From positions 7,755-71,754 of the forward strand of contig JBAYKK010000002.1 of NCBI GenBank assembly GCA_041664625.1: DNA of 64,000 nt. Direction: 5' to 3'. How positions within the stretch are numbered: position 1 is the first letter of the stretch; each line of letters begins with the position of its first letter. This document shows, one piece after another, positions 7,047 to 63,953 of the stretch. Both the position numbers and the translations under genes were made by a program. This DNA is from Minisyncoccota bacterium (lineage in GTDB: Bacteria; Patescibacteriota; Minisyncoccia; Phycocordibacterales; WO2-35-19). The notes beneath the pieces were generated by a model. It saw only the letters and a list, made by a program, of their open reading frames with translations, had not been told where the DNA came from and searched no databases.

Positions 7047-7135
7047 ATCGGATGGCCAAAGCTTTAGCGAAGGCATCCAGTGGCTTATATTCTTACATAA
7101 GCCAGAGCTTTTATCAAAGGATTTCTAACATTTGA

Positions 7136-7201
7136 CCCAGTAGTGAATTTTGGCATTAGTTTCACTATGCACTTTGTGCCATGCCAAAATCTACTACTGG
7201 G
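7136..7201. repeat. MITE-like palindromic element, copy G (arms CCAGTAGTGAATTTTGGCAT / ATGCCAAAATCTACTACTGG)
   Basis: Shares conserved terminal inverted repeats with 6 other copies; flanked by TTGAC on both sides. Confidence 0.7.
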
Positions 7202-7236
7202 TTTGACTATTTTGTTTGTATTTGGTAGCTTTAGAG

Positions 7237-14657: not shown

Positions 14658-16119
14658 TTTAAAAATCACATTTTTTGGTGGGGCCGGTTCTACTACTGGG
14701 GCTAACATAATGCTTGAAGTTGGAAGTAATCCCACTTCGCCAAAGCTTCGCGGGACAAGAATTTTGGTGGATTGCGGACTTTTGCAAGGTGCTCGATTCG
14801 CTGAAGATAAAAATTTTGAAAATTTCAAATATAACCCAGCTGAAATTGATTTTCTTTTGATTACTCATGCTCATATGGATCATATAGGCAAAGTGCCCAA
14901 ATTGGTGCGTGATGGTTTCAAAGGCAAAATAATATCTACGGTGGAAACTATGGAACTGGCTCGACCGATGCTCGTAGATGCTCTGAAAGTGATGCAAGCT
15001 CGTCACCCCAACCAAACTCTTTTTGAAGAAGCTGATATAAACAAATCTTTTGCTTTGTGGGAAGGCCGAAGTTATGAAGAGAAAATAAATCTTTTTGAAA
15101 ATTGTAGTTTATTTATGCAAGATGCTGGGCATATATTGGGTTCGGCTATTTGCAATGTCACTTGTGGAGTGGGGGAAGAATCAAAGACCATAGCCTTCAC
15201 TGGGGACTTGGGTAATTCGCCTTCGCCTATTTTGCCAGATACCGAGACCCCAAAAGGAGTTGATTATTTGGTTATGGAGAGTGTCTATGGAGATAGGAAT
15301 CATGAAAGCAAAGACGAAAGAAGACAAAAATTAAAACAAGCTATTTTGAATGGCCAAGAAAGAGGGGGTACTATAGTGATCCCGGCTTTTTCCATAGAGC
15401 GGACTCAGGTTTTGCTTTATGAGTTGAATAATATGATTGAAGATCAAGAGATCCCCAAGGTGCCAGTTTTTTTGGACTCTCCTTTAGCTCTCAAAGTAAC
15501 TGATATTTATAAAAAATATCAAAAAGATTTCAAACCATCAGTCCAACAAGAAATACAATCGGGCGATGATATTTTTGATTTCCCTGGTTTACAAATAGTG
15601 AGGAATACCAGAGAGTCAGAAGAAATAGAAAAATTGGCCGGGCCTAAAATAATTTTGGCCGGTTCAGGTATGTCTGAAGGGGGGAGAGTGGTCAGTCATG
15701 AAGCTCGATTTTTGCCCGATCCTACGGCTACTATTATTTTAGTCGGTTATCAGTCAGTCGGTTCATTGGGTAGAGCGATTCAAGATGGAGTCAAAGAGGT
15801 TTTCATAGAGACTGATGGTGACAAGAGCAACGGTAAAGAAAAAGTAAAAGTCAGAGCCACTATTGAAAACATAACTGGTTATTCATCGCACAAAGATTCG
15901 GAGCATTTGCTGGAGTTCGTCGAAAAAGTAAATGACTCGACCTCACCCCCAACCCCTCTCCTTGCGAAGGAGAGGGGAGAAGGAAAAAAAGGATTGAAGA
16001 GGGTTTTCGTTATAATGGGCGAACCCAAATCATCCCTTTTCCTCACTCAACGCATCCGCGATTATCTCGATATTGACGCAGTTTATCCAGAAGAAAATAA
16101 AGAATACGAATTAAAATAA
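14650..16119 (+). CDS. metallo-beta-lactamase fold ribonuclease, beta-CASP family (RNase J-like)
   Basis: HAHMDH motif 2, D...H motifs, beta-CASP motif GYSSHKDSEHL; contains an in-frame hairpin-repeat insertion (TSPPTPLLAKERGEGKKG). Confidence 0.8.
   Translation: MNNLKITFFGGAGSTTGANIMLEVGSNPTSPKLRGTRILVDCGLLQGARFAEDKNFENFKYNPAEIDFLLITHAHMDHIGKVPKLVRDGFKGKIISTVETMELARPMLVDALKVMQARHPNQTLFEEADINKSFALWEGRSYEEKINLFENCSLFMQDAGHILGSAICNVTCGVGEESKTIAFTGDLGNSPSPILPDTETPKGVDYLVMESVYGDRNHESKDERRQKLKQAILNGQERGGTIVIPAFSIERTQVLLYELNNMIEDQEIPKVPVFLDSPLALKVTDIYKKYQKDFKPSVQQEIQSGDDIFDFPGLQIVRNTRESEEIEKLAGPKIILAGSGMSEGGRVVSHEARFLPDPTATIILVGYQSVGSLGRAIQDGVKEVFIETDGDKSNGKEKVKVRATIENITGYSSHKDSEHLLEFVEKVNDSTSPPTPLLAKERGEGKKGLKRVFVIMGEPKSSLFLTQRIRDYLDIDAVYPEENKEYELK
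15940..15977 (+). repeat. R-family hairpin repeat copy R1, inside the beta-CASP CDS, in frame
   Basis: acctcacccccaacccctctc-cttgcgaag-gagagggg matches intergenic family consensus. Confidence 0.7.
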
Positions 16120-16174
16120 CCTCACCCCGTTTTCCTTACGGAAAACTGCCCCTCTCCTAGACGCAGGGGAGGGG
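16118..16174 (+). repeat. R-family hairpin repeat copy R2 (double-hairpin variant)
   Basis: aacctcacccc + gttttccttacggaaaac + cccctctc-ctagacgcag-gggagggg. Confidence 0.7.
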
Positions 16175-16806: not shown

Positions 16807-18336
16807 TTATCTCGCAAATTCAATAGTTCGAGATTCACGAATAACAACCACGCGGATTTCACCTGGGTATTTGAGTTCGTTTTCGATGCGGACGGCGATG
16901 TCGCGGGCCATACTTTTGGCTTCAACATCATTGACTTGAGAAGGGGTGACAAACACTCTGAGCTCTCTACCAGCTTGTAGAGCGTAAGCTTTTTCTACAC
17001 CAGTTACAGTAGTAGCGATGGCTTCTAGGTCACCCAAGCGTTTCAAGTAATTTTCTACGCTATCGCGTCTCGCTCCAGGTCTAGCACCAGAAATCGCATC
17101 AGCCGATTGGACGATATAAGATTCCAAAGTAGAGTAGGGGTATTCACCGTGGTGGGATTCCATGGCTCTGATTATTTTTTCATCAGCACCAAATTTCTGA
17201 AGGATGCGACGACCGATGTCTACGTGGGTACCAGCTATTTCATGATCTACCGCTTTGCCGATATCATGGAGCAATGCTCCGGCTTTGGCGACGGCTACAT
17301 TGGCACCGATCTCGGTAGCGAGCATACCAGCGATGTGGGACATTTCAATTGAGTGTTGCAAAACGTTTTGACCGTAAGAAGTCCGGAAATGTAATCGGCC
17401 CAAAATAGAAACTATGCGTGAGTCGAGGTTGAAAACTCCACACTCGTAAGCCGCCGCTTCGCCTTTTTCTCTCATTATTTTATTGATGTCTTGTTTGGCT
17501 TTTTCTATCATTTCTTCAATTTTGGCAGGTTGAATACGCCCGTCGGAAATTAAGTTTTCTAAAGCTACTCTAGCTATTTGTCTACGAACTGAATCGTAAG
17601 AAGAGATAGTGATAAGTCCTGGAGTATCGTCCACGATGACTTCTACTCCGGAAGCTCTCTCAAAAGCTTTGATGTTTCGGCCTTCTTTACCGATGATTTT
17701 ACCTTTGATTTCATCGGAAGGGATGGTGACAGTAGTAGAAAATACTTCGGAAGATACTGAGTTGGCCAATCTTTGGATAGAAGTGGTGAGTATTTCTTTG
17801 GCTTTGGCCTCAATCTTTTCGCTACCATCTTTTTCTAATTTCTGCATTCTCACTACGATATCTTCCTCGTGTTTTTTGGCTATTTCTCTGAGTAAGACTT
17901 CTTTGGCTTCTTCTTCGGTGAGGTTGGAGATTTTTTGTAACTCGTTAGATTTTTGTTTTTCCAAATTTTCTACCTTTTCTTTGATAGTTTTTACTTCGGA
18001 AACTTTTTCTTTAACTTGTTCTATTTCCTTGTCTATATCTACTTGTCTTTTATCCAAAAATTCCTCTTTTTTGATGAGGCGGTCTTCGGTTTTTTTAATT
18101 TTGTCTTCTTTTTCTTTAAACTCTACTCGGGTTTCTTTCAAAGTTTCTTCGGCTTTTTTCTCGGCTTCTTCGGTGATTTTCTTGGCTTCTTCCCTCGCGT
18201 GGAGCTCCATCTGCTTGATACGAAGTTCTACTGAACCGCGTTGACCTAAAGAGATTATCCATCGCAAGAAATAACCGAAACCGACTCCAACCAAAGCAGC
18301 TAATCCAGCTAGGAGTACTGCTAATTTTAATGACAT
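16807..18336 (-). CDS. rny: ribonuclease Y
   Basis: N-terminal TM, long coiled coil, KH domain, HD domain (LLHDIGKAVDHE). Confidence 0.9.
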   Translation of the reverse strand: MSLKLAVLLAGLAALVGVGFGYFLRWIISLGQRGSVELRIKQMELHAREEAKKITEEAEKKAEETLKETRVEFKEKEDKIKKTEDRLIKKEEFLDKRQVDIDKEIEQVKEKVSEVKTIKEKVENLEKQKSNELQKISNLTEEEAKEVLLREIAKKHEEDIVVRMQKLEKDGSEKIEAKAKEILTTSIQRLANSVSSEVFSTTVTIPSDEIKGKIIGKEGRNIKAFERASGVEVIVDDTPGLITISSYDSVRRQIARVALENLISDGRIQPAKIEEMIEKAKQDINKIMREKGEAAAYECGVFNLDSRIVSILGRLHFRTSYGQNVLQHSIEMSHIAGMLATEIGANVAVAKAGALLHDIGKAVDHEIAGTHVDIGRRILQKFGADEKIIRAMESHHGEYPYSTLESYIVQSADAISGARPGARRDSVENYLKRLGDLEAIATTVTGVEKAYALQAGRELRVFVTPSQVNDVEAKSMARDIAVRIENELKYPGEIRVVVIRESRTIEFAR

Positions 18337-18517: not shown

Positions 18518-18574
18518 AACCTCACCCCACTTTCCTTCGGAAAGTTGCCCCTCTCTTATATTAAGAGAGGGGAG
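18518..18574 (+). repeat. R-family hairpin repeat copy R3 (double-hairpin variant)
   Basis: aacctcacccc + actttccttcggaaagt + cccctctc-ttatattaa-gagagggg. Confidence 0.7.
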
Positions 18575-19193: not shown

Positions 19194-20255
19194 TTAGTTT
19201 TCTAATAATTTGAGTACTTCAGAATTGATGAGGATGGTAGAAACATAAATACGGGCATTGGTTTCGGAAGCGCTAGGGTAGTGCTTCATAACTTCTTTAA
19301 CTTCGTTTTCCAAAATTTCTTTGTTTGGCTCTAGTTTTTCTGCTTCAGCGATTTTATTAAATATGAGTTGGATTTTGGCCTTTTTTTCAGAACTGTCCTT
19401 CAAATCTTTTTTCAAGTCATCTTCACTCTTTTTGATCTGGGTCAAATAATCGGCAAATTTACCACCCGCTCTTTCTATTTCATCTTTCATTTGGGCCAAA
19501 GATTTTTCGGTCTCGCTCTCTACTAATATATTAGGCAATTCGATATCGGTTTTTTTGACCAAAGCTTCCATGATTTGAGCTCTAGTTTTTTCTATGTTTC
19601 TGGCCTTCTTTTCGGCTACTATGTTTTCTTTTACTTTTTCTTTGAGTTCAGCCAAACTTTTAAAATTACCAGCTACTTTGGCGAATTCATCATCCAAAGC
19701 TGGTAAATCCTCATCTTTGATTTCTGGGTGGTTGTGGCCCGTCTCATCTTTATGAGCTTCATGCCAATCAAAATGCGCCTTGTTCCTTCGGATTTGCAAA
19801 AGTACATCTTCTAATTCTTTGTCTGTTGCCTCAGTTTTTTCTTCCTTGCTTGCTACTTGCTGCTTGCTACTTGCTGCTATTTTCTTATAGTCTGGCAATG
19901 TGAATTCTGGCATCACAGCAAAAACTACTTTGAATTCAACTGGATTGCCCAAGGCCAATTTGGTGATAGAAACTTTAGGTTGGCCGATTATGTCCAATTT
20001 GGCCTCGCTTATGATTTTAGGGAAGTGTTCTTTGAGTAATATATCAGCCGCTTCTCCCAATATTTCTCCTTCGTCTATTTTTTCAATTACTACGTTTTCT
20101 GGTATATGGCCTTTTCTAAAACCGGGGACGTCTAGAGATACACCAAACATATTTATGGCTTTTTTGCGGGCGGATACCAAAAAATCAGCGGGTATGGATA
20201 CTTCCATTTCCACTTCTGATTTTGGTAATTTTTTTATTTTGAATTCGTACGACAT
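19194..20255 (-). CDS. tig: trigger factor
   Basis: N-terminal ribosome-binding domain, PPIase region GFRKGHIP; 353 aa (short form). Confidence 0.8.
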
Positions 20256-20320
20256 CCCGTAGTAGATTTTGGCTATGTTATCACGATTCCGTAGGAATTA
20301 TAGCCAAAATTCACTACGGG
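20256..20320. repeat. MITE-like palindromic element, copy A, abutting tig start codon
   Basis: cccgtagtagattttggc...gccaaaattcactacggg. Confidence 0.7.
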
Positions 20321-20361
20321 AACACCGCACTAGTCTATCAAAATATGATTATTCCGACAAG

Positions 20362-22647: not shown

Positions 22648-22685
22648 TAACTCACCCCCAACCCCTCTCTTACATTAAGAGAGGG
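22648..22685 (+). repeat. R-family hairpin repeat copy R4
   Basis: aactcacccccaacccctctc-ttacattaa-gagagggg. Confidence 0.7.
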
Positions 22686-22783
22686 GAAAACGAATAAATA
22701 AGAAAGAAAAAATCCGCGGGTAATGCGGAGTGACAATCTTTCAGTATTAAAACCATTATATACCCAAGAGGGTAAACAGTCAA

Positions 22784-22852
22784 CCCCGTAGTAGATTTTG
22801 GCATTGTGGCAAAGCCACCGCACGAAGTGCAATGCCAAAATTCACTACGGGG
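22784..22852. repeat. MITE-like palindromic element, copy B (flanked by GTCAA direct repeat)
   Basis: ccccgtagtagattttggcattg...caatgccaaaattcactacgggg. Confidence 0.7.
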
Positions 22853-28984: not shown

Positions 28985-29051
28985 CCCGGTAGTAGATTTT
29001 GATATCGCACTTAAAGTGCCGGCAAGGCCAATATCAAAATTCACTACTGGG
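28985..29051. repeat. MITE-like palindromic element, copy C (flanked by TTGAC direct repeats)
   Basis: cccggtagtagattttgatatc...gatatcaaaattcactactggg. Confidence 0.7.
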
Positions 29052-35948: not shown

Positions 35949-37631
35949 ATGAAAATTCAAGAAAAAATTAAAAAATGGATAAAAGAAACTTTGGAGATAG
36001 AAGGGGATTTTGTGTTGGCTCATCCCAAAGATTTGAAAAATGGTGATTATTCTTTCTTTGCTACGTCGAAGCTTTCAGCGAAAGCGAGTACTCCAGAAGA
36101 AGCGGTAAATATTTTAAATGAAAATAAAATTCCAGAAATAGAAAAAATAGAAGTAGTGGGCAAGTTTATAAATTTTTATTTATCCAAAGGTTTTTTTGTC
36201 GATTCGGTTAAAGAAATTTTAGATAAAAAAGAAAATTATGGCAAAAATAATTTGCTTGAGGGTCAAAAAATCTTGATTGAGCATACTCAACCCAATCCGT
36301 TCAAAGAATTTCATATTGGGCATTTGATGAACAATGCAGTAGGAGAATCAGTTTTTAGAATTTTGGATGCAAACGGAGCAGAGATTACGGCCGTTGGTTA
36401 TCATGGGGATGTGGGGCTTCACGTAGCCAAAACTATTTGGGGCAAAATGCAAAAACCGGAACTCTCTTGGGGAGAGGCTTATGCCTATGGTTCTCAAAAT
36501 TTTGACGATCATAAAATAGAGATAACCGAAATAAACAAAAAAGTTTACGAAAAATCAGATCAGGAAATAAATAAATTATATGAAAATGGTAAAAAAGATT
36601 GTTTAGATTATTTTGAATCGCTTTATAAAAGATTAGACAGTCATTTTGATTTTCATTTTTTTGAAAGTGAAACTGGGGAAGTAGGGCAGGCTTTGGTAAT
36701 GCAAAATGTGGGTAAAGTTTTTGAAAATGGTGAGGGCGGGGCGGTGATTTTCAAAGGTGAAAATTTTCAGCCCCAGACTCATACTCGAGTCTTCATAAAT
36801 TCAGAAGGTATTCCCACTTATGAAGCCAAAGAAGTAGGTTTGGCTAAAATTAAAAAGGAAAAATATGATTATGATAAATCCATTACTGTCACCGCTAACG
36901 AACAGGATGCATTTTTTGATGTGACTGAGGTGGCGATCGGTGAAGTGAGGCCAGAACTCAAAGGCAAACTCAAACATCTTTCACATGGTATGTTGCGATT
37001 ACCGAGTGGTAAAATGTCTAGTCGCACTGGAGAGGTGATTACTGCGGAAAATTTGATTGAGCAGGTGAAAGAAAAAGTTTTTGAAAAAATAAAAGATCGG
37101 GAATTTGATGAGAATGAAAAACAAGAGATTGCGGAGATAGTGGCGGTCGGTGCCATTAAGTATTCCGTCTTAAGGCAAGCTATCGGGGGAGACATTATTT
37201 TTGATTTTGATAAATCAATTTCATTCGAAGGGGATTCGGGCCCTTATCTGCAGTATGCTTGTGTGCGCGCTAATTCGGTTTTGGAAAAAGCTAAAGCAGC
37301 CAAAATGATTTCTTCTGTCGGCTTCGCTGATTTTCCTTCGGAAAATACGACTCTAGAAATCATTTTGGCTGCTTCCGCGACTGAATTAGAAAAAATATTG
37401 TATCGATTTGAAGAAGTAGTAGAGCGAGCAGGGCAGGAGTATGCTCCACATCATATCGTGACTTACTTGACCGAGCTCGCCAGTGTTTTCAATAGTTTTT
37501 ATGCTAATAATAAAATTATAGACGGGAGTGACACGACTTCACCTTATAAAATTGCTCTGACTACCGCAGTAGCTCATACTCTCAGATCCGGTCTCCATAT
37601 TTTGGGTATCAAAGTGCCGGAGAAAATGTGA
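35949..37631 (+). CDS. argS: arginine--tRNA ligase
   Basis: Class I HIGH (FHIGHLMN), C-terminal DALR anticodon-binding region ending ...VPEKM. Confidence 0.9.
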   Translation: MKIQEKIKKWIKETLEIEGDFVLAHPKDLKNGDYSFFATSKLSAKASTPEEAVNILNENKIPEIEKIEVVGKFINFYLSKGFFVDSVKEILDKKENYGKNNLLEGQKILIEHTQPNPFKEFHIGHLMNNAVGESVFRILDANGAEITAVGYHGDVGLHVAKTIWGKMQKPELSWGEAYAYGSQNFDDHKIEITEINKKVYEKSDQEINKLYENGKKDCLDYFESLYKRLDSHFDFHFFESETGEVGQALVMQNVGKVFENGEGGAVIFKGENFQPQTHTRVFINSEGIPTYEAKEVGLAKIKKEKYDYDKSITVTANEQDAFFDVTEVAIGEVRPELKGKLKHLSHGMLRLPSGKMSSRTGEVITAENLIEQVKEKVFEKIKDREFDENEKQEIAEIVAVGAIKYSVLRQAIGGDIIFDFDKSISFEGDSGPYLQYACVRANSVLEKAKAAKMISSVGFADFPSENTTLEIILAASATELEKILYRFEEVVERAGQEYAPHHIVTYLTELASVFNSFYANNKIIDGSDTTSPYKIALTTAVAHTLRSGLHILGIKVPEKM

Positions 37632-37780
37632 TTTTGCCACCAGCAAAATCATCCTGAGCTAAACAAATAATTTTGATTATTTTTTAGCGAAGGGTAAATT
37701 TTGCCACCAGCAAAATCATCCTGAGCTAAACAAATAATTTTGATTATTTTTTAGCGAAGGGTAAATTTTGCCACCAGCAA
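37631..37780 (+). repeat. perfect tandem direct repeat, 67-bp unit x2.2 (attttgccaccagcaaaatcatcctgagctaaacaaataattttgattattttttagcgaagggtaa)
   Basis: Units 37631-37697, 37698-37764 identical; partial third 37765-37780; between argS stop and next ATG. Confidence 0.9.
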
Positions 37781-38054: not shown

Positions 38055-38065
38055 TCTCATTTGAT

Positions 38066-38132
38066 CCAGTAGTAGATTTTGACATTACACTTCATGCTGT
38101 GGCTTTGCCACGATGTCAAAATTCACTACTGG
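38066..38132. repeat. MITE-like palindromic element, copy D (TTGAT / TTGAC flanks)
   Basis: ccagtagtagattttgacat...atgtcaaaattcactactgg. Confidence 0.7.
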
Positions 38133-38133
38133 A

Positions 38134-40037: not shown

Positions 40038-40075
40038 CACCCCCCAACCCCCCTCTTACATTAAGAGGGGGAGAG
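40037..40075 (+). repeat. R-family hairpin repeat copy R6 (between rplP and rpmC)
   Basis: acaccccccaacccccctct-tacattaa-gagggggagag. Confidence 0.7.
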
Positions 40076-40948: not shown

Positions 40949-40989
40949 ACACCCCCCAACCCCCCTCTTACATTAAGAGGGGGGAGGGA
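40949..40989 (+). repeat. R-family hairpin repeat copy R7 (between rplN and rplX)
   Basis: acaccccccaacccccctct-tacattaa-gaggggggaggg. Confidence 0.7.
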
Positions 40990-41238: not shown

Positions 41239-41280
41239 AAACCTCACCCCCAGCCCCTCTCCTAGATGCAGGAGAGGGGA
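41239..41280 (+). repeat. R-family hairpin repeat copy R8 (between rplX and rplE)
   Basis: aacctcacccccagcccctctc-ctagatgcag-gagagggg. Confidence 0.7.
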
Positions 41281-41921: not shown

Positions 41922-41954
41922 ACACACCCAACCCCCTCTTATTTTAAGAGGGGG
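41922..41954 (+). repeat. R-family hairpin repeat copy R9
   Basis: acacacccaaccccctct-tatttta-agaggggg. Confidence 0.65.
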
Positions 41955-51059: not shown

Positions 51060-51330
51060 TGGGGGAATGGTACTTGTCATGGGTCTCAAGGGAAGCATCG
51101 CTTCCCGGTGGCTGGAAACTTTCCAGCGAAGGGTTCATGCGCTTTCGGCCCGGACCTCGTGCGGCAGCAGGTGAGCCACAGCTTATCCTGCGGCATCCGA
51201 AAATTCGGCACACCCAGTTTGTGTCGGAATTCTGGATGATCGGCACACAGCCGACGATCCGCCTTGGAGTTCAATTCTCCAAGTAAATCAAAACCCCCGT
51301 CTCTTCAAGGAGAGCGGGGGTTTTCTCATT
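51060..51330 (+). ncRNA. GC-rich structured non-coding region of unknown identity ending in intrinsic terminator
   Basis: Three mutually overlapping stop-free frames (non-coding signature), hairpins gggaagc-atc-gcttccc, ctggaaa/tttccag, ccgaa-aa-ttcgg, T-arm-like TGGAG-TTCAATT-CTCCA, terminator aaacccccgtctc-ttcaag-gagagcgggggttt+TCTC. Confidence 0.35.
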
Positions 51331-52370: not shown

Positions 52371-52394
52371 TATGTTATAATAATACATCATGAG

Positions 52395-52528
52395 TCCCGT
52401 AGTAGAAAATGGCATGGGAAAGTTTTTATTGTTTAGATTAAGAATGTTATTATTAATGAATAGATTATTATGTGTTTTAACTATAAAAATGGCACTTTCC
52501 AAAAACAATGCCATTTTTCACTAACGGG
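52395..52528. repeat. MITE-like palindromic element, copy E (expanded ~134 bp; arms cccgtagtagaaaatggcat / atgccatttttcactaacggg), flanked by ATGAGT direct repeat
   Basis: Coordinates +/-1; right arm ends at pilM start codon. Confidence 0.65.
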
Positions 52529-53632
52529 ATGAGTTTCATTTCTGACATTTTTGAAAAGAAAAATACGAGCGCTATTGGTATCGATATTGGCTCTTCTTCT
52601 ATCAAAGTAGTTCAACTTCATAAAAAGGGTGATAAAGCTATACTTGACACTTACGGTGAGCTTTCTTTGGGTCCGTATGGGGGTGTTTCAATCGGCCAAT
52701 CTACCAATTTGCCCACCGAAAAAATAGTGCAAGCGGTCAGAGATCTCTTGGCCGAAAAAGAAGTTGCCATTACTACCAAAGTTTGTGGTTTGGCCATCCC
52801 TTTCAAAGCTTCTCTGCTCTCTATTATAGAAATGCCGGCCATAGGTATGAAAGAGCTCGGTATGATGATACCGATTGAAGCTCGTAAATATATACCGGTG
52901 CCGATATCAGACGTGACCATCGATTGGTCGGTAGTACCCAAATCCGAAGTTGAAGATATCCCTGTTATGAAGGGTGAAAATAAAGTCAAAACAGTCGATA
53001 TACTTTTGGTGGCTATCCATAATAATATTATCAATCAATATCGGGATGTTGTTTCCAAGGCTGGTTTAGAGGCCAAATTTTTTGAAATCGAAGTTTTCAG
53101 TTCTATGAGAGCTATTTTGGAAGGGGTGCAAGGGGCGGTCATGATTTTTGATATGGGGGCGTCAACTACCAAATTGTATATGATAGATAGAGGTTTGGTA
53201 CATCATTCTCACACTATAAATCGAGGCTCTCAAGACATAACCGCCAATATCGCGAGATCTCTCAATATTTCAACTGAAGAAGCTGAGGTAATAAAAAGAT
53301 CTGCTGGTTCCGGCAAAACATCAGAGGGCTTCGACCTTTCAGAATCGGTGGCCAATGTGGCAGACAGTATATTTTCTGAGGCCAATAGATTTTTGTTTGA
53401 ATTTCAGAAAAAAAGAAATCAAAATATCAAATCAGTATTTTTGACTGGCGGAGGTTCGGCTCTGCGGGGTTTCAGAGATTTGGCAGCAGCCAATTTCAAA
53501 GTTGAAGTGATATCCAGTAATCCATTTGAAAAAGTAGAAGTACCAGCATTTTTGGAAAATATCCTCAAAGAAACTGGCCCAGAATTCACCGTCGCAGTCG
53601 GCGCTGCTCTGCGTTGTCTCCAAGAATTATAA
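52529..53632 (+). CDS. pilM: type IV pilus assembly protein PilM
   Basis: Actin-like ATPase fold pattern IGIDIGSSSIKVV; start at ATG 52529 (MSFISDIF), in frame with the track ORF. Confidence 0.8.
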   Translation: MSFISDIFEKKNTSAIGIDIGSSSIKVVQLHKKGDKAILDTYGELSLGPYGGVSIGQSTNLPTEKIVQAVRDLLAEKEVAITTKVCGLAIPFKASLLSIIEMPAIGMKELGMMIPIEARKYIPVPISDVTIDWSVVPKSEVEDIPVMKGENKVKTVDILLVAIHNNIINQYRDVVSKAGLEAKFFEIEVFSSMRAILEGVQGAVMIFDMGASTTKLYMIDRGLVHHSHTINRGSQDITANIARSLNISTEEAEVIKRSAGSGKTSEGFDLSESVANVADSIFSEANRFLFEFQKKRNQNIKSVFLTGGGSALRGFRDLAAANFKVEVISSNPFEKVEVPAFLENILKETGPEFTVAVGAALRCLQEL

Positions 53633-60209: not shown

Positions 60210-60680
60210 ATGTTTAAAAATAAAAAAGGTTTTACACTTATTGAACTTTTGGTGGTTATAGCTATTATTGGTATTTTGTCTTCAGTTGTTTTGGCTTCCC
60301 TAAACACCGCAAGAGCAAGAGGTAATATGGCAAAAGTTAAAGCACAATTGGCTGGAGCCCGTGCAGCAGCTGAATTATATTATGACACTGCAGGTGGTTA
60401 TGCAGCTGGAACTTGTGCAGCCGCTCCTACAGGGATGTTTGCCGATACAAACTCTGGTTTGAATCAATACGCGGATACGGATAATTATCCATCTGGAACA
60501 ACTATGGACTGTGGTGGTTCAGGCACAGCTTATTCTATGGCGGCTGCTTTAGGAGGTAGTGTATGGTGTGTTGACAGTTTAGGTATTTCTAGAGACAAAA
60601 CATCAGCTGGAGTTACTTACACAGCTCTTACTGGTGCTACAGGTGCTCATGCAGTTGCAGCAGGTACAGTTTGTCAATAG
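60210..60680 (+). CDS. pilA: type IV pilin (candidate major pilin PilA)
   Basis: MFKNKKG|FTLIELLVVIAIIGIL; Ala/Gly/Thr-rich C-terminus with Cys pair. Confidence 0.8.
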   Translation: MFKNKKGFTLIELLVVIAIIGILSSVVLASLNTARARGNMAKVKAQLAGARAAAELYYDTAGGYAAGTCAAAPTGMFADTNSGLNQYADTDNYPSGTTMDCGGSGTAYSMAAALGGSVWCVDSLGISRDKTSAGVTYTALTGATGAHAVAAGTVCQ

Positions 60681-60707
60681 TATACAAAATTATATTTTGT
60701 CTAAAAT

Positions 60708-60736
60708 CAAAACCCCGCTGTTGCGGGGTTTTGTGT
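60708..60736 (+). terminator. rho-independent terminator aaccccgc-tgtt-gcggggtt + TTTG
   Basis: Read directly. Confidence 0.7.
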
Positions 60737-60756
60737 TATTATTTAAATAATGCAAT

Positions 60757-60827
60757 CCCGTAGTGAATTTTGACTATAATTCCTGCGGAATCAGTTAAAA
60801 ATTAACATAGTCAAAATCTACTACGGG
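60757..60827. repeat. MITE-like palindromic element, copy F, flanked by 7-bp direct repeat ATGCAAT (second copy is the pilD start)
   Basis: cccgtagtgaattttgactat...atagtcaaaatctactacggg; TSD at 60750-60756 and 60828-60834. Confidence 0.75.
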
Positions 60828-61688
60828 ATGCAATATATTTTTGGGGTACTTATATTTTTTGTCGGTACTGCTTTGGGGAGTTTTATCGCCGTGATTGCCG
60901 ATCGCTACAACACAGGGCTACCCTGGACCAAAGGCCGGTCAATTTGTTTTTCTTGTGATACTGAACTTAAAAATAAAGATCTTTTCCCTTTGTTTTCTTT
61001 TTTGTGGCTCAAGGGCAAATGCCGATATTGCCAAAGCAAAATTCCTAGAGAGACTTTTTTTGTGGAAATTTTGATGGGCGCTCTCACAGTTTTAGCTGTT
61101 TTTAAATCTGGTTTTTTGGGTTTTGATTTTTCTTCCTTAATTCTTAATTCATACTTCATAATTCAATTTTTACTTTTAACTGCTATTTTTGGAAATATCC
61201 TTCTGATTTCTATTTATGATCTTAAGCATTTCATTATTCCCGACGTTTTTTTAATTTGTTTCTTTGTTTTTGCTTTTATTCTTAATTCCTACTTCATAAT
61301 TCATAATTCACTTTCTTATTTTTTCATAATTCAAAATCTGCTTTCTGGTCTTGTTTTAACTTTACCGTTTCTTCTAATATTTTTGATTTCACGAGGGGCT
61401 TGGTTTGGATTTGGGGACGTGAAGTATATTGCGGTTTTGGGGTTTTTCCTTGGTCTGGTGCAGGGTTTGTCAGCGGTAGTTTTGGCTTTTTGGATTGGAG
61501 CGGTTTTTGCTGTTTTGGCACTGGTTTTTAAAAAAATTACACCCTATATAAATTTGCCTCTGTTTAAAAATAATCTTACAATTAAGTCTGAAATACCATT
61601 TGGACCTTTCCTTTCTTTGGGGATAATAATAAGTTTTTATTTGAGTCTAGATTTATTTTACATAAATGAAATATTTAAATTTTTCTAA
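60828..61688 (+). CDS. pilD: prepilin peptidase PilD (A24 family)
   Basis: N-terminal CxxC...CxxC zinc motif, multiple TM, conserved GFGDVK Asp region. Confidence 0.85.
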   Translation: MQYIFGVLIFFVGTALGSFIAVIADRYNTGLPWTKGRSICFSCDTELKNKDLFPLFSFLWLKGKCRYCQSKIPRETFFVEILMGALTVLAVFKSGFLGFDFSSLILNSYFIIQFLLLTAIFGNILLISIYDLKHFIIPDVFLICFFVFAFILNSYFIIHNSLSYFFIIQNLLSGLVLTLPFLLIFLISRGAWFGFGDVKYIAVLGFFLGLVQGLSAVVLAFWIGAVFAVLALVFKKITPYINLPLFKNNLTIKSEIPFGPFLSLGIIISFYLSLDLFYINEIFKFF

Positions 61689-62256
61689 AAATAAAGGATT
61701 CACATTGCTTGAGTTGATGGTGGTTATCACTATAGCCACAGCAGTAATAACTTCTTTGGTCTTTCAACAAAATAAATGGAACGACAGTTTAACTGTCAAT
61801 TCTCAAGCCTATGAATTAGCTTTGATGATCCGGCAATCCCAGATTTATAGTCTGGGAGTAAGAGAATATGTTGGTGGTACTGGTGATAAATTCAACATAG
61901 GTTATGGAGTTTACTTTAGTCAGAGTAATTTGAATGGATACGTGTTTTTTGCCGATAAAAATGGCAATCAAAAATATGATGCGGGAGAAAGTATAGAAAC
62001 CAAAACCTTCACTAGAGGTGTAACCATAAAAGATGTTTGTGGTGAAGACACCAATGGCTGTTTCCCTGGTAGTGGGCCTTTGACAAGTGTAAGCATTTCG
62101 TTTTTTAGACCAGAGATTAAAGCTAATATGAGTCTTTTGAATGCCGGCGGAGGTTCAACTGGTGACCCTCCTGTTACCATTCGTTTGCAATCTGTGGGTG
62201 GTAAGTATTCTTCGGTCAAAGTAGATTCTAACGGCCAGGTCTCTATAATACAATGA
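61666..62256 (+). CDS. minor pilin / pseudopilin (GspH/FimT-like)
   Basis: KNKG|FTLLELMVVI prepilin motif. Confidence 0.7.
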   Translation: MKYLNFSKNKGFTLLELMVVITIATAVITSLVFQQNKWNDSLTVNSQAYELALMIRQSQIYSLGVREYVGGTGDKFNIGYGVYFSQSNLNGYVFFADKNGNQKYDAGESIETKTFTRGVTIKDVCGEDTNGCFPGSGPLTSVSISFFRPEIKANMSLLNAGGGSTGDPPVTIRLQSVGGKYSSVKVDSNGQVSIIQ

Positions 62257-62834
62257 TAATTAAAAAATCTTCAATCTTCAATTTTCAATTTTCAATTCCC
62301 GCGAAGCGAAGTGGAGGCTTCACTTTGGTAGAACTTCTGGTTGCGGTCTCTTTGTTTGTGGTAGTGGCCACTATTTCTATTGGTGCTATTTTGAGTGTTT
62401 TTAATGCCAACAAAAAAGCCCAATCATCCAAAACAGTGGTAGACAATTTTAATCTTTCTATTGAAAATATGTCTAGGACCGTACGCTTTGGCAACAATTA
62501 TCATTGTGGCGTTAGTGGTACAATTTCTGTGCCGAGCAGTTGCCCAGGTGGAGATACTTTTTTTGCGGTTACCTTCAATGGCAGTGTCGTAGTTTATCGC
62601 TTAAATGGTACGGCAATTCAAAAATCTGATGATGGTGGAGTTAATTATACAGACATCACTGACCCAGCAGCGGTCATAGAATATTTGAAATTTTATGTTT
62701 TTGGTACTACTGTTTCAGACAATGATCAGCCTTACGTGGTGGTAGTTATCAAAGGTAAAGTTGGGAATAAAGTAATCAATCAAACCACATTTTCCATAGA
62801 AACTTTAATGTCTCAAAGATCACTTGATTTATGA
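62253..62834 (+). CDS. minor pilin / pseudopilin with 22-aa repeat-built leader
   Basis: ...KRSGG|FTLVELLVAV; leader encoded by heptamer repeats. Confidence 0.7.
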   Translation: MIIKKSSIFNFQFSIPAKRSGGFTLVELLVAVSLFVVVATISIGAILSVFNANKKAQSSKTVVDNFNLSIENMSRTVRFGNNYHCGVSGTISVPSSCPGGDTFFAVTFNGSVVVYRLNGTAIQKSDDGGVNYTDITDPAAVIEYLKFYVFGTTVSDNDQPYVVVVIKGKVGNKVINQTTFSIETLMSQRSLDL

Positions 62835-63406
62835 TAAATAAAATTTTCAATATTCAATATTCAATTTCTAATTACTCAAGAGGTTTTACTATACTTGAAT
62901 CAATAGTGGCCATTGCGGTTTTGTCACTCTCAGTTTCTGGAGCTTTTTCGGCAGTTACTCAGAGTCTTTCTCAGGCTACTATCGCCAAAGATGAAGTCAA
63001 AGCTTTTTATTTGGCTCAGGAAGCGATAGAAGTAATAAGAAACAAAAGAGATGCTAATCAACTCAGTTTATTAAATACTGGATCTGGTTTTTGGCTTGCT
63101 GGCATTGCTCAGTATGATACTGACCCTTGTTATTTTGAAAAAGTCTGTCAGATTGATGCCAATCCAATACCACCAACTTTGGTTTATTGCAACTCTTCTT
63201 CGTGGGGCAGCTGTGCTTATTTGAAACAAAACCCAACTACTTTTATGTATAATTACACTACCGGAACGGCCACCAATTTCAAAAGAGAAATAAAAATTGA
63301 ATCAGTAAATGCCAATGAAGTAGCCATAATCGTCAGAGTTTCTTGGACGAAAGGTATAATAACCAGAGAATTTAAGATAAAGAGCTATTTATTTAATTGG
63401 ATTTAA
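62831..63406 (+). CDS. minor pilin / pseudopilin (PilV/GspI-like)
   Basis: ...NYSRG|FTILESIVAI; leader encoded by heptamer repeats. Confidence 0.7.
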   Translation: MINKIFNIQYSISNYSRGFTILESIVAIAVLSLSVSGAFSAVTQSLSQATIAKDEVKAFYLAQEAIEVIRNKRDANQLSLLNTGSGFWLAGIAQYDTDPCYFEKVCQIDANPIPPTLVYCNSSSWGSCAYLKQNPTTFMYNYTTGTATNFKREIKIESVNANEVAIIVRVSWTKGIITREFKIKSYLFNWI

Positions 63407-63407
63407 T

Positions 63408-63953
63408 ATGAAATTGAAAATTGAAAATTATAAATTGAAAATTCCTGCGCAGAGGGCCGGTATGACATTGTTTATAGCGATTATGATCATGAGTGTATTA
63501 CTTTTTATAAGTTTTGCCGTGATTAATATAGGACTCAAAGCCACCACTTTCGCTACTTCGGGCAGAGATTCCCAGTATGCTTTTTATGCAGCTGACAGTG
63601 GAACGGAGTGTGCCGTGTATTGGGATTCTAAACCAGCTACTGGTAGTGCCTTTGCCACTTCTACTTCCGGGGATAGTTTAAATTTCACATGTGCCGGATC
63701 GGCCGATATGAATACTGGTCAAGCCATAGTCGGAACGTCTACGCTTTCAAGGATAGGGGGTGGAGGTAGCGCTAATCCTACCAGTATTTTTGGTTTTGTT
63801 ATGAACCAAGGATCTGATCCAGTAAATTATTGCGCTATCGTGACAGTCACCAAAAATCTGAACGGTACTACTTATATCAAATCTCGAGGTTATAACACTT
63901 GTGATACTTCAAATACTAAAAGGGTGGAAAGAGGGGTGGAGGTTACCTACTAA
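63408..63953 (+). CDS. PilX-like minor pilin / pilus-associated protein
   Basis: ...PAQRAGMTLFIAIMIM TM helix after repeat-built leader; Cys pairs in C-terminal domain. Confidence 0.5.
   Translation: MKLKIENYKLKIPAQRAGMTLFIAIMIMSVLLFISFAVINIGLKATTFATSGRDSQYAFYAADSGTECAVYWDSKPATGSAFATSTSGDSLNFTCAGSADMNTGQAIVGTSTLSRIGGGGSANPTSIFGFVMNQGSDPVNYCAIVTVTKNLNGTTYIKSRGYNTCDTSNTKRVERGVEVTY

Follow-up and report, generated by a model that had tools for sequence, protein, structure and literature searches.

The stretch of DNA analysed here (64 kb, called the window below) is part of a metagenome contig of CPR/Patescibacteria; among its genes, which include ribosomal, pilus and housekeeping ones, no transposase is listed. 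We detected seven copies of a short inverted-repeat element in the window (Table 1), each of 66–134 bp, without coding capacity and bounded by terminal inverted repeats 17–22 bp long. The copies lie 2–14 kb apart among the housekeeping operons and occur in both orientations. Six of the seven have identical 13-nt arms, GTAGTAGATTTTG and CAAAATTCACTAC, which end in ..GATTTTG and CAAAAT.. and surround unrelated interiors: when these canonical copies are compared two by two, each of the 15 pairs agrees at 26 of 26 arm positions, and the similarity of the interiors is only about 59%. For the arm motif, 13 occurrences were counted in the window where 0.46 would be expected, and a hairpin scan picked out the six canonical copies and no others, with no hit in shuffled sequence. 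When the copies were folded as single-stranded DNA, z-scores of −4.3 to −9.5 were obtained. Since no two interiors are alike, the window copies can be judged from their sequences to be old. An eighth copy lies just beyond the window end (L201, 18968–19031), and its interior is related to those of the copies at 20255 and 60756. Copies at corresponding sites were found for the one at 7136, with a near-identical interior (L021), and for the one at 38065, with the same rare outer pair TCCA/TGGA (L023).

Table 1. Element copies and other repeat features of the window
Feature	Position	Strand	Length	Flanking repeat	Setting and remarks
Element copy	7136–7201	−	66 bp	target duplication TTTGA (7131–7135, 7202–7206)	between tRNA-Ser and the rpsN (S14) promoter
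Element copy	20255–20321	+	67 bp	direct repeat ACA	adjoins the ATG of the minus-strand trigger-factor gene
Element copy	22784–22852	+	69 bp	target duplication TCAA	the nusA promoter has this repeat as its −35 hexamer, TTGACT on the minus strand
Element copy	28985–29051	+	67 bp	target duplication TTGA	the right-hand TTGA runs on as TTGACT-N16-TATAAT
Element copy	38065–38133	+	69 bp	target duplication TTGA	the right-hand TTGA runs on as TTGACA, upstream of rpsS (S19)
Element copy, long sub-family	52395–52528	+	134 bp	direct repeat (A)TGAG (52390–52394, 52529–52533)	AAATG/CATTT arms; adjoins the ATG of pilM (downstream gene is Pfam PilM_2)
Element copy	60756–60828	−	73 bp	target duplication TGCAA	adjoins the ATG of the prepilin-peptidase ORF
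Uninterrupted target site	16807–16830	−			3' end of rny (RNase Y), reads GAATTTGCGAGATAA
Second repeat family	15953–15977, 16149–16174, 18548–18572, 22662–22686, 40048–40070, 40960–40984, 41254–41279, 41933–41953, 51296–51319	+			inside operons
Perfect tandem duplication	37631–37764		67-bp unit		just after the arginyl-tRNA synthetase gene

The original prediction concerned the copy at 52395 and proposed that both of its arms had switched together, so that complementarity was kept. This is what the sequence contains: the arms read GTAGTAGAAAATGGCAT ... ATGCCATTTTTCACTAAC, three T-A pairs having become A-T on both sides, within a layout of TCCC GTAGTAGA AAATG GCAT ... ATGC CATTT TTCACTAAC GGG. 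A 1-nt insertion in the right arm (CTAAC) had gone unnoticed, as had the seventh copy, on the minus strand at 7136–7201; all the strings cited in the prediction are present in the window. The AAATG/CATTT sub-family was also found at four other loci (L005, L014, L080 and L087), in the first of which a long AAATG-type copy and a canonical copy share one TTGA repeat beside a GIY-YIG gene. Each window copy has its own complementary sub-terminal stem. The pairs ggcattg/caatgcc (22784), gacat/atgtc (38065), ggctat/atagcc (20255) and gactat/atagtc (60756) are complementary as had been claimed; in the copy at 28985 the pairing holds over 5 bp, as gatat/atatc, and the sixth pair implied by gatatc/gatatc is a C·A mismatch. 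The copies at 20255 and 60756 and the one just beyond the window end, all from one genome, carry GGCTAT/ATAGCC, GACTAT/ATAGTC and GGCAAT/ATTGCC round the same interior hairpin.

A second repeat family is present in the window, always on the + strand and inside operons, and was found in 8 other CPR loci as well. Its copies consist of a stop codon, (A)CCTCACCCCC, a hairpin CCCCTCTC..GAGAGGGG and a purine-rich tail, and from this layout the family looks like a hairpin of the anti-Shine-Dalgarno/Shine-Dalgarno type. Two copies have an extra hairpin with compensated differences, GTTTTCC/GGAAAAC in one and ACTTTCC/GGAAAGT in the other, as had been reported for positions 16118 and 18518. The 67-bp unit that is perfectly duplicated in the window is present as a single copy in a near-identical public contig (L002).

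Every copy in the window is flanked by a direct repeat. Species-representative genomes were scanned with the exact two-arm pattern and, among the matches listed, it occurred in more than 113 stretches from more than 100 species-level CPR genomes, labelled Nomurabacteria, Zambryskibacteria, Wolfebacteria, Kaiserbacteria, Paceibacterota and related MAGs. Of the 119 distinct gene-less copies among these matches, 85 have a direct repeat of 4 nt or more on their flanks, compared with approximately 5% when flanks were paired at random; the commonest repeats were TTGA (15) and its complement TCAA (14), followed by TGCTA. In the window, the 3' end of rny represents an uninterrupted target site. At the same place other species have either a gene-less copy or an element with the GIY-YIG gene: one locus (L151) reads GAGTATG, then the element, then TATGCGAGATAA, two loci (L123 and L181) have the element with the repeat TACG, and at one (L012) the copy is gene-less. 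This site is an insertion hot spot, unoccupied in the window. At the occupied sites the host protein regains its Ala-Arg-stop from the first bases of the element (CCCGGTAG or CTAGGTAG). Two public contigs overlap the window; they are of the same strain, with an identity of at least 99.99%, and the same copies are found in both, without any presence/absence difference, so recent movement was not demonstrated.

Other arrangements of gene-less copies were seen at three further loci. At L071 (2211–2522) four identical copies follow one another in tandem every 81 nt, each pair having the 4-bp repeat CAAG in common, which could be the result either of repeated insertion into a regenerated target or of unequal exchange. 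Minimal two-arm hairpins of 33–40 nt were found at L065 (near 5359) and L067 (1047–1079), one of them back to back with a full copy.

The same ends were found around an intact ORF of 88 aa at locus L079, and this ORF is a GIY-YIG domain (Pfam PF01541, E = 2e-17). At the loci seeded by gene-less copies, 4 of 4 genes of this nuclease sub-family lay inside an element or no more than 35 nt from one. Metagenome contigs were then searched by protein alone, so that the sample was unbiased for the DNA ends; 441 relatives were returned and 80 loci taken. Arms enclosed the nuclease gene at 48 of the 80 loci under the strict pattern and at 72 of 79 with a relaxed box; for the latter count the arms were defined by anchoring on a two-base irregularity of the stem, as RNA duplex folding of the gene flanks was too noisy. 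The association of the nuclease sub-family with these ends is near-obligate. The gene-carrying elements have a total length of about 310 bp (mostly 300–320 bp) and a single gene, which encodes an Slx1/UPF0213-type GIY-YIG nuclease of 85–93 aa. Their ends and those of the gene-less copies have the same box, the same two-base irregularity and the same 4-bp duplication; the duplication was exact in 31 of 44 distinct gene-carrying elements, most frequently as TATG. Approximately 90% of the nuclease ORFs are intact, and Tyr5, Tyr16, Gly18, Arg26, His30, Asn31 and Glu62, which include the catalytic Tyr, Arg, His and Glu, are conserved in 58–59 of 59 proteins. The protein consists of the catalytic domain only and lacks a C-terminal DNA-binding module. 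When solved relatives were ranked by sequence, the order was 1zg2 (3.6e-8), 1ywl (8.8e-6), Slx1 (9e-4) and I-TevI (0.05); the predicted fold was closest to UPF0213 and Slx1, and Foldseek gave the same order. The protein collection holds at least 1409 clusters of this nuclease at 90% identity, named just 'GIY-YIG nuclease family protein' or 'putative endonuclease'.

No GIY-YIG gene was detected in the 64-kb window despite its seven gene-less copies (the rest of the genome was not covered), and viral contigs contained neither an exact-arm copy nor a relative of the nuclease. One identical nuclease protein present on 24 contigs marked a single locus only, and no movement was seen. The description of the repeats as MITE-like, made in the original prediction, is borne out by the inverted ends, the target-site duplications, the gene-carrying partner and the empty orthologous site.

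Several features of the gene-carrying loci were recorded in addition. The duplication TATG itself lengthens the stem. In the left ends of L116–L195 the start context of the nuclease gene, GATTATG, is conserved, with TGA or TAG just upstream. In elements with TATG as their duplication, a short leader ORF (MPRSRISN is one example) begins at the host ATG and stops 2 nt ahead of the ATG of the nuclease. This arrangement suggests that the nuclease may be expressed by translational coupling to the start signals of the host gene. A gene-less copy is nested inside a GIY-YIG element at L125 and L140. At L196–L199 a GIY-YIG element is located among the genes of a pilin operon (prepilin peptidase, small pilin-like genes and DNA ligase); the operon at 60210–63953 of the window is similar and has no nuclease gene. 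At L076 (849–912) a 16S rRNA gene is interrupted near model position 185 by a canonical gene-less copy. Within another 16S rRNA gene (L033, 323–2112), a GIY-YIG gene of a different sub-family occupies 1560–2112 and is bounded by a different inverted repeat of 21 bp, CCCAGCA[T/C]CTTTTTTATCTTA, which shares the initial CCC and contains a single mismatch, at 8 nt from the tip. Since the gene of this other sub-family is also located between inverted ends, the layout may be general for the GIY-YIG genes of CPR.

The ends of both forms have a common anatomy. A tip of four loosely conserved base pairs, [C/T]CCN ... NGG[G/A], is followed by a 5-bp box, GTAGT/ACTAC, then by an invariant two-base irregularity and then by about 10 more base pairs that are free in sequence and complementary all the same. 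The irregularity consists of AG opposite TC or GA opposite CT (one A·C and one G·T), is located 10–11 nt from each tip and looks alike on both strands. The interior holds one nuclease gene in the form of ~310 bp and usually two small palindromes in the form of 55–135 bp. Both forms have a target duplication of 4 bp (sometimes 5 bp), typically T..A or T..G.

Pairing in the stem was analysed in the protein-seeded set of 56 distinct arm pairs (alignment A2), which is unbiased with respect to the arms. Standard pairs were observed in 93.2% of cells compared with 74.8% in shuffles, and none of 500 shuffles reached 93.2%. Of 20 stem pairs, 18 had changed on both sides, double changes were counted in 207 cells compared with 64 ± 8 in shuffles, and the covariation score of 0.50 fell to 0.16 upon shuffling and to 0.12 or less when the partners were slid by 1–3 columns. 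These shuffle controls ignore the relatedness of the sequences. Compensation extended to the GTAGT box, which was also found as ATAGT/ACTAT, GAAGT/ACTTC, GCAGT/ACTGC, GTTGT/ACAAC and GTAGA/TCTAC. In the gene-less set the four positions beside the fixed arms were Watson-Crick in 107–118 of 120 copies among the matches listed, with three or four pair types at each position and a shuffle maximum of 84. The prediction that pairing is maintained despite sequence change is thus met in 120 distinct copies (more than 100 species, among the matches listed) and, independently of the arms, in the 56 pairs ascertained via the protein.

It had been left undecided whether the hairpin matters as RNA or as DNA, and an explanation at the RNA level is the alternative that has to be weighed first. 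According to it, a transcribed hairpin keeps the insertion harmless, be it through loop-out from rRNA, through bringing together a ribosome-binding site and the duplicated start codon, or through removal by RNase III; or else it acts as a regulatory RNA. This would suit the position of the gene-carrying elements, 35 of 65 of which adjoin the ATG of a co-oriented long ORF compared with 2% of random positions, as well as the three of seven window copies that adjoin start codons, the gene-less copy and the GIY-YIG insertion located inside 16S rRNA genes, and the GIY-YIG ORFs reported in non-intron insertions of CPR rRNA genes (PMC11270868). The pairs themselves speak against it. Among 1008 stem cells read on the sense strand, 976 were Watson-Crick, 9 were G·T, 14 were A·C and 9 were of other kinds, and the mismatches in the sub-terminal stems of the gene-less copies were of the G·T type in 4 cases and of the A·C type in 10 (among the matches listed). 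An RNA stem would tolerate G·U much more readily than A·C. The interior hairpins, mostly triloops closed by C-G, were without strand bias (CAAAG 14 and CTTTG 10; CGAAG 10 and CTTCG 7), the elements occurred in both orientations relative to the neighbouring genes, and many copies were located upstream of the −35 box of the next promoter. An Rfam scan of the window at the gathering threshold detected two tRNAs only, and an E-value scan of one copy returned nothing but sub-threshold, miRNA-like hairpin noise on both strands. Fixed orientation, G·U tolerance and a match to a curated family, by which a structured RNA would be recognised, were therefore all missing. Given that G·T was no commoner than A·C and that the interior loops were strand-symmetric, the constraint looks, as far as sequence can tell, to be one on DNA that acts on both strands, and the data point to pairing within DNA, as a cruciform or in either single strand. 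Of the two levels originally proposed, it is the DNA level that the data favour. An RNA fold may matter too for the copies at start codons or inside 16S rRNA genes and is without power to explain the family-wide pattern; we consider selection on RNA an unlikely explanation, albeit not one to be disregarded.

The nuclease gene could also be mere cargo, with a conventional transposase encoded elsewhere that binds the ends as double-stranded DNA, in which case the apparent compensation would reflect sub-families derived from different master elements. The ends begin with CC and the duplications are of 4–5 bp, as in some DDE families, GIY-YIG enzymes are not known to transpose DNA, and the window has copies without the nuclease gene. 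A protein that does not read the freely varying positions would not keep them matched, and these positions stay complementary in 56 different arm pairs. The search for other genes between such ends covered about 1.07 Mb round elements and detected none: with the same ends at 150–3000 bp round gene-less copies and at 30–700 bp round nuclease genes, there were only nuclease-gene elements and nested or tandem copies. Such regular enclosure of the sub-family genes by these ends, with most ORFs intact and the catalytic residues conserved, would not be expected of dispensable cargo. We therefore rate this possibility low, next after an effect on RNA.

The original prediction had allowed for arm-to-arm conversion in place of selection, and in that case complementarity would be restored without any selection, either by template switching at quasi-palindromes or by mismatch repair in a hairpin intermediate. 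Quasi-palindromes are known to mutate through template-switch correction, and strict Watson-Crick pairing with few intermediates is what copying would produce. Such correction alone would, however, erase the mismatch of AG/TC or GA/CT, which was unchanged in 56 of 56 gene-carrying elements and in all gene-less copies. Moreover, the outermost variable pair was often mismatched (Watson-Crick in only 71 of 120 gene-less copies among the matches listed), and the small interior hairpins, which are not copies of the arms, are kept as well. Selection on the fold is favoured over conversion, which we regard as very improbable on its own.

We give equally little credence to the proposal that the repeats are domesticated host elements (promoter-proximal insulators, protein-binding sites or uptake signals) kept by selection on the host rather than by mobility. 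It would account for the identity of the arms in six old window copies, for arms kept in the corresponding-site copies of other species, and for the fact that 25 of 33 TTGA-flanked copies are placed exactly on the −35 hexamer of a TTGAC[A/T]-N16-18-TAnnnT promoter, compared with 4.5% of all TTGA sites. The comparison across species is biased, however, because the copies were found by requiring exact arms; the copies are found in settings as varied as promoters, start codons, gene 3' ends and rRNA genes and in either orientation, and the target duplications and the empty site point to insertion events. A likeness to CRISPR repeats (GTAGAT) was set aside since spacer-bearing arrays are missing, the presence of duplications led us to reject IS200/IS605-type elements and attC sites, and copying of the outer four bases from the target fitted two loci (L066 and L123) and not the set as a whole.

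The reading that we consider probable is that the repeats are non-autonomous relatives of a nuclease-encoding mini-transposon of Paceibacteria-type CPR and are recognised by shape. The family with its duplications, the uninterrupted target, the nuclease association, the strong covariation and the Watson-Crick-strict pairing without strand bias were demonstrated. The two ends change together because, apparently, the element must fold back on itself as DNA, and we infer that it would form either a cruciform or, on one or the other single strand, a hairpin. A structure-specific nuclease would then recognise the short box together with the irregularity by their sequence and the rest of the stem by its shape, and would mobilise the gene-carrying and the gene-less forms alike, a step that was inferred and is not supported by any experiment; copies that lose pairing would no longer be mobilised or maintained. 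We propose only tentatively, as a real possibility short of an expectation, that the 88-residue Slx1-like GIY-YIG nuclease is itself the mobilising enzyme, reading the ends as a folded DNA shape, with the window repeats as hitch-hiking derivatives. GIY-YIG nucleases hydrolyse DNA, and to our knowledge none performs strand transfer or leaves target duplications. A separate transposase sharing these ends cannot be excluded, considering that only ~1 Mb round elements was searched. In the literature searched, GIY-YIG elements with inverted repeats and flanking duplications did not appear, and there is a substantial chance that they form a new class of transposon.

If the nuclease moves the elements, it would represent a new class of enzyme for transposition and would set a new lower size limit of about 0.3 kb: the ~316-bp units would be the smallest autonomous transposable elements known and the first with a GIY-YIG 'transposase', and they would provide a clear case of mobile-element ends defined by DNA shape. 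The same result would re-label the clusters (at least 1409 at 90% identity) that now bear a family name only, account for the non-intron GIY-YIG insertions noted in CPR rRNA genes and revise the view of prokaryotic Slx1-like nucleases as purely housekeeping. The elements also mark promoters and start codons in unculturable genomes, and a compact nuclease that reads shape could be of use as a tool.

Among known systems, the MITEs Correia/NEMIS of Neisseria and RUP of Streptococcus pneumoniae are similarly short and non-coding, have terminal inverted repeats and target-site duplications, and are intergenic, often beside promoters, and capable of forming hairpins. Their partner, where one is known, is a DDE transposase, whereas the gene-carrying relative described here encodes only a GIY-YIG nuclease, and most of the end is conserved here as pairing and not as sequence. 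REP/REPIN elements with their RAYT enzyme (HUH Y1) also consist of short palindromic repeats that contain GTAG and need a small enzyme; in the familiar picture of REPINs, they are thought to move as folded single-stranded DNA, and their hairpin is kept by compensated changes. REPINs, in contrast to the present elements with their duplications of 4–5 bp, have no target duplication, each REP is itself a palindrome, and the enzyme is of the HUH and not the GIY-YIG type and is not enclosed by the repeat. No Y1 (RAYT) transposase was found in the Pfam lists of the window genes (whole genomes were not covered). Integron attC sites resemble the elements in that structure is conserved over sequence, with an obligatory stem irregularity, a variable centre and a variable length. 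They differ in their R/L box consensus, cassette arrays, tyrosine integrase and lack of target duplication, none of which was seen here, and the copies with GTAGTAGATTTTG and CAAAATTCACTAC arms match neither the core sites RYYYAAC / GTTRRRY nor a cassette array of one orientation.

Slx1 recognises branched DNA by its shape and cuts it. In sequence, the protein encoded within the elements matches UPF0213 (YhbQ-type) BH0048 (E = 3.6e-8) and Slx1, and its predicted fold matches with a TM of 0.65 and an rmsd of 1.4 Å over 70 columns. The prokaryotic members are seen as housekeeping, whereas the gene of the present elements has inverted repeats and duplications on either side; prokaryotic Slx1-like proteins were treated as repair enzymes in earlier work, which placed the selfish GIY-YIG genes in the UvrC/I-TevI lineage (PMC1564403). 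The GIY-YIG homing endonucleases (I-TevI, Seg) are likewise selfish genes and share the catalytic domain. They differ in having a C-terminal DNA-binding domain, in being copied by repair and in lacking inverted ends and target duplications, and the present elements do not conform to this type, having no such DNA-binding module and making 4-bp duplications at many different sites. The closest parallel comes from the rRNA genes of CPR, where GIY-YIG ORFs were described in non-intron insertions 'outside the context of homing', without mention of inverted repeats or hairpins (PMC11270868); these insertions are probably the same elements as those described here or sister elements.
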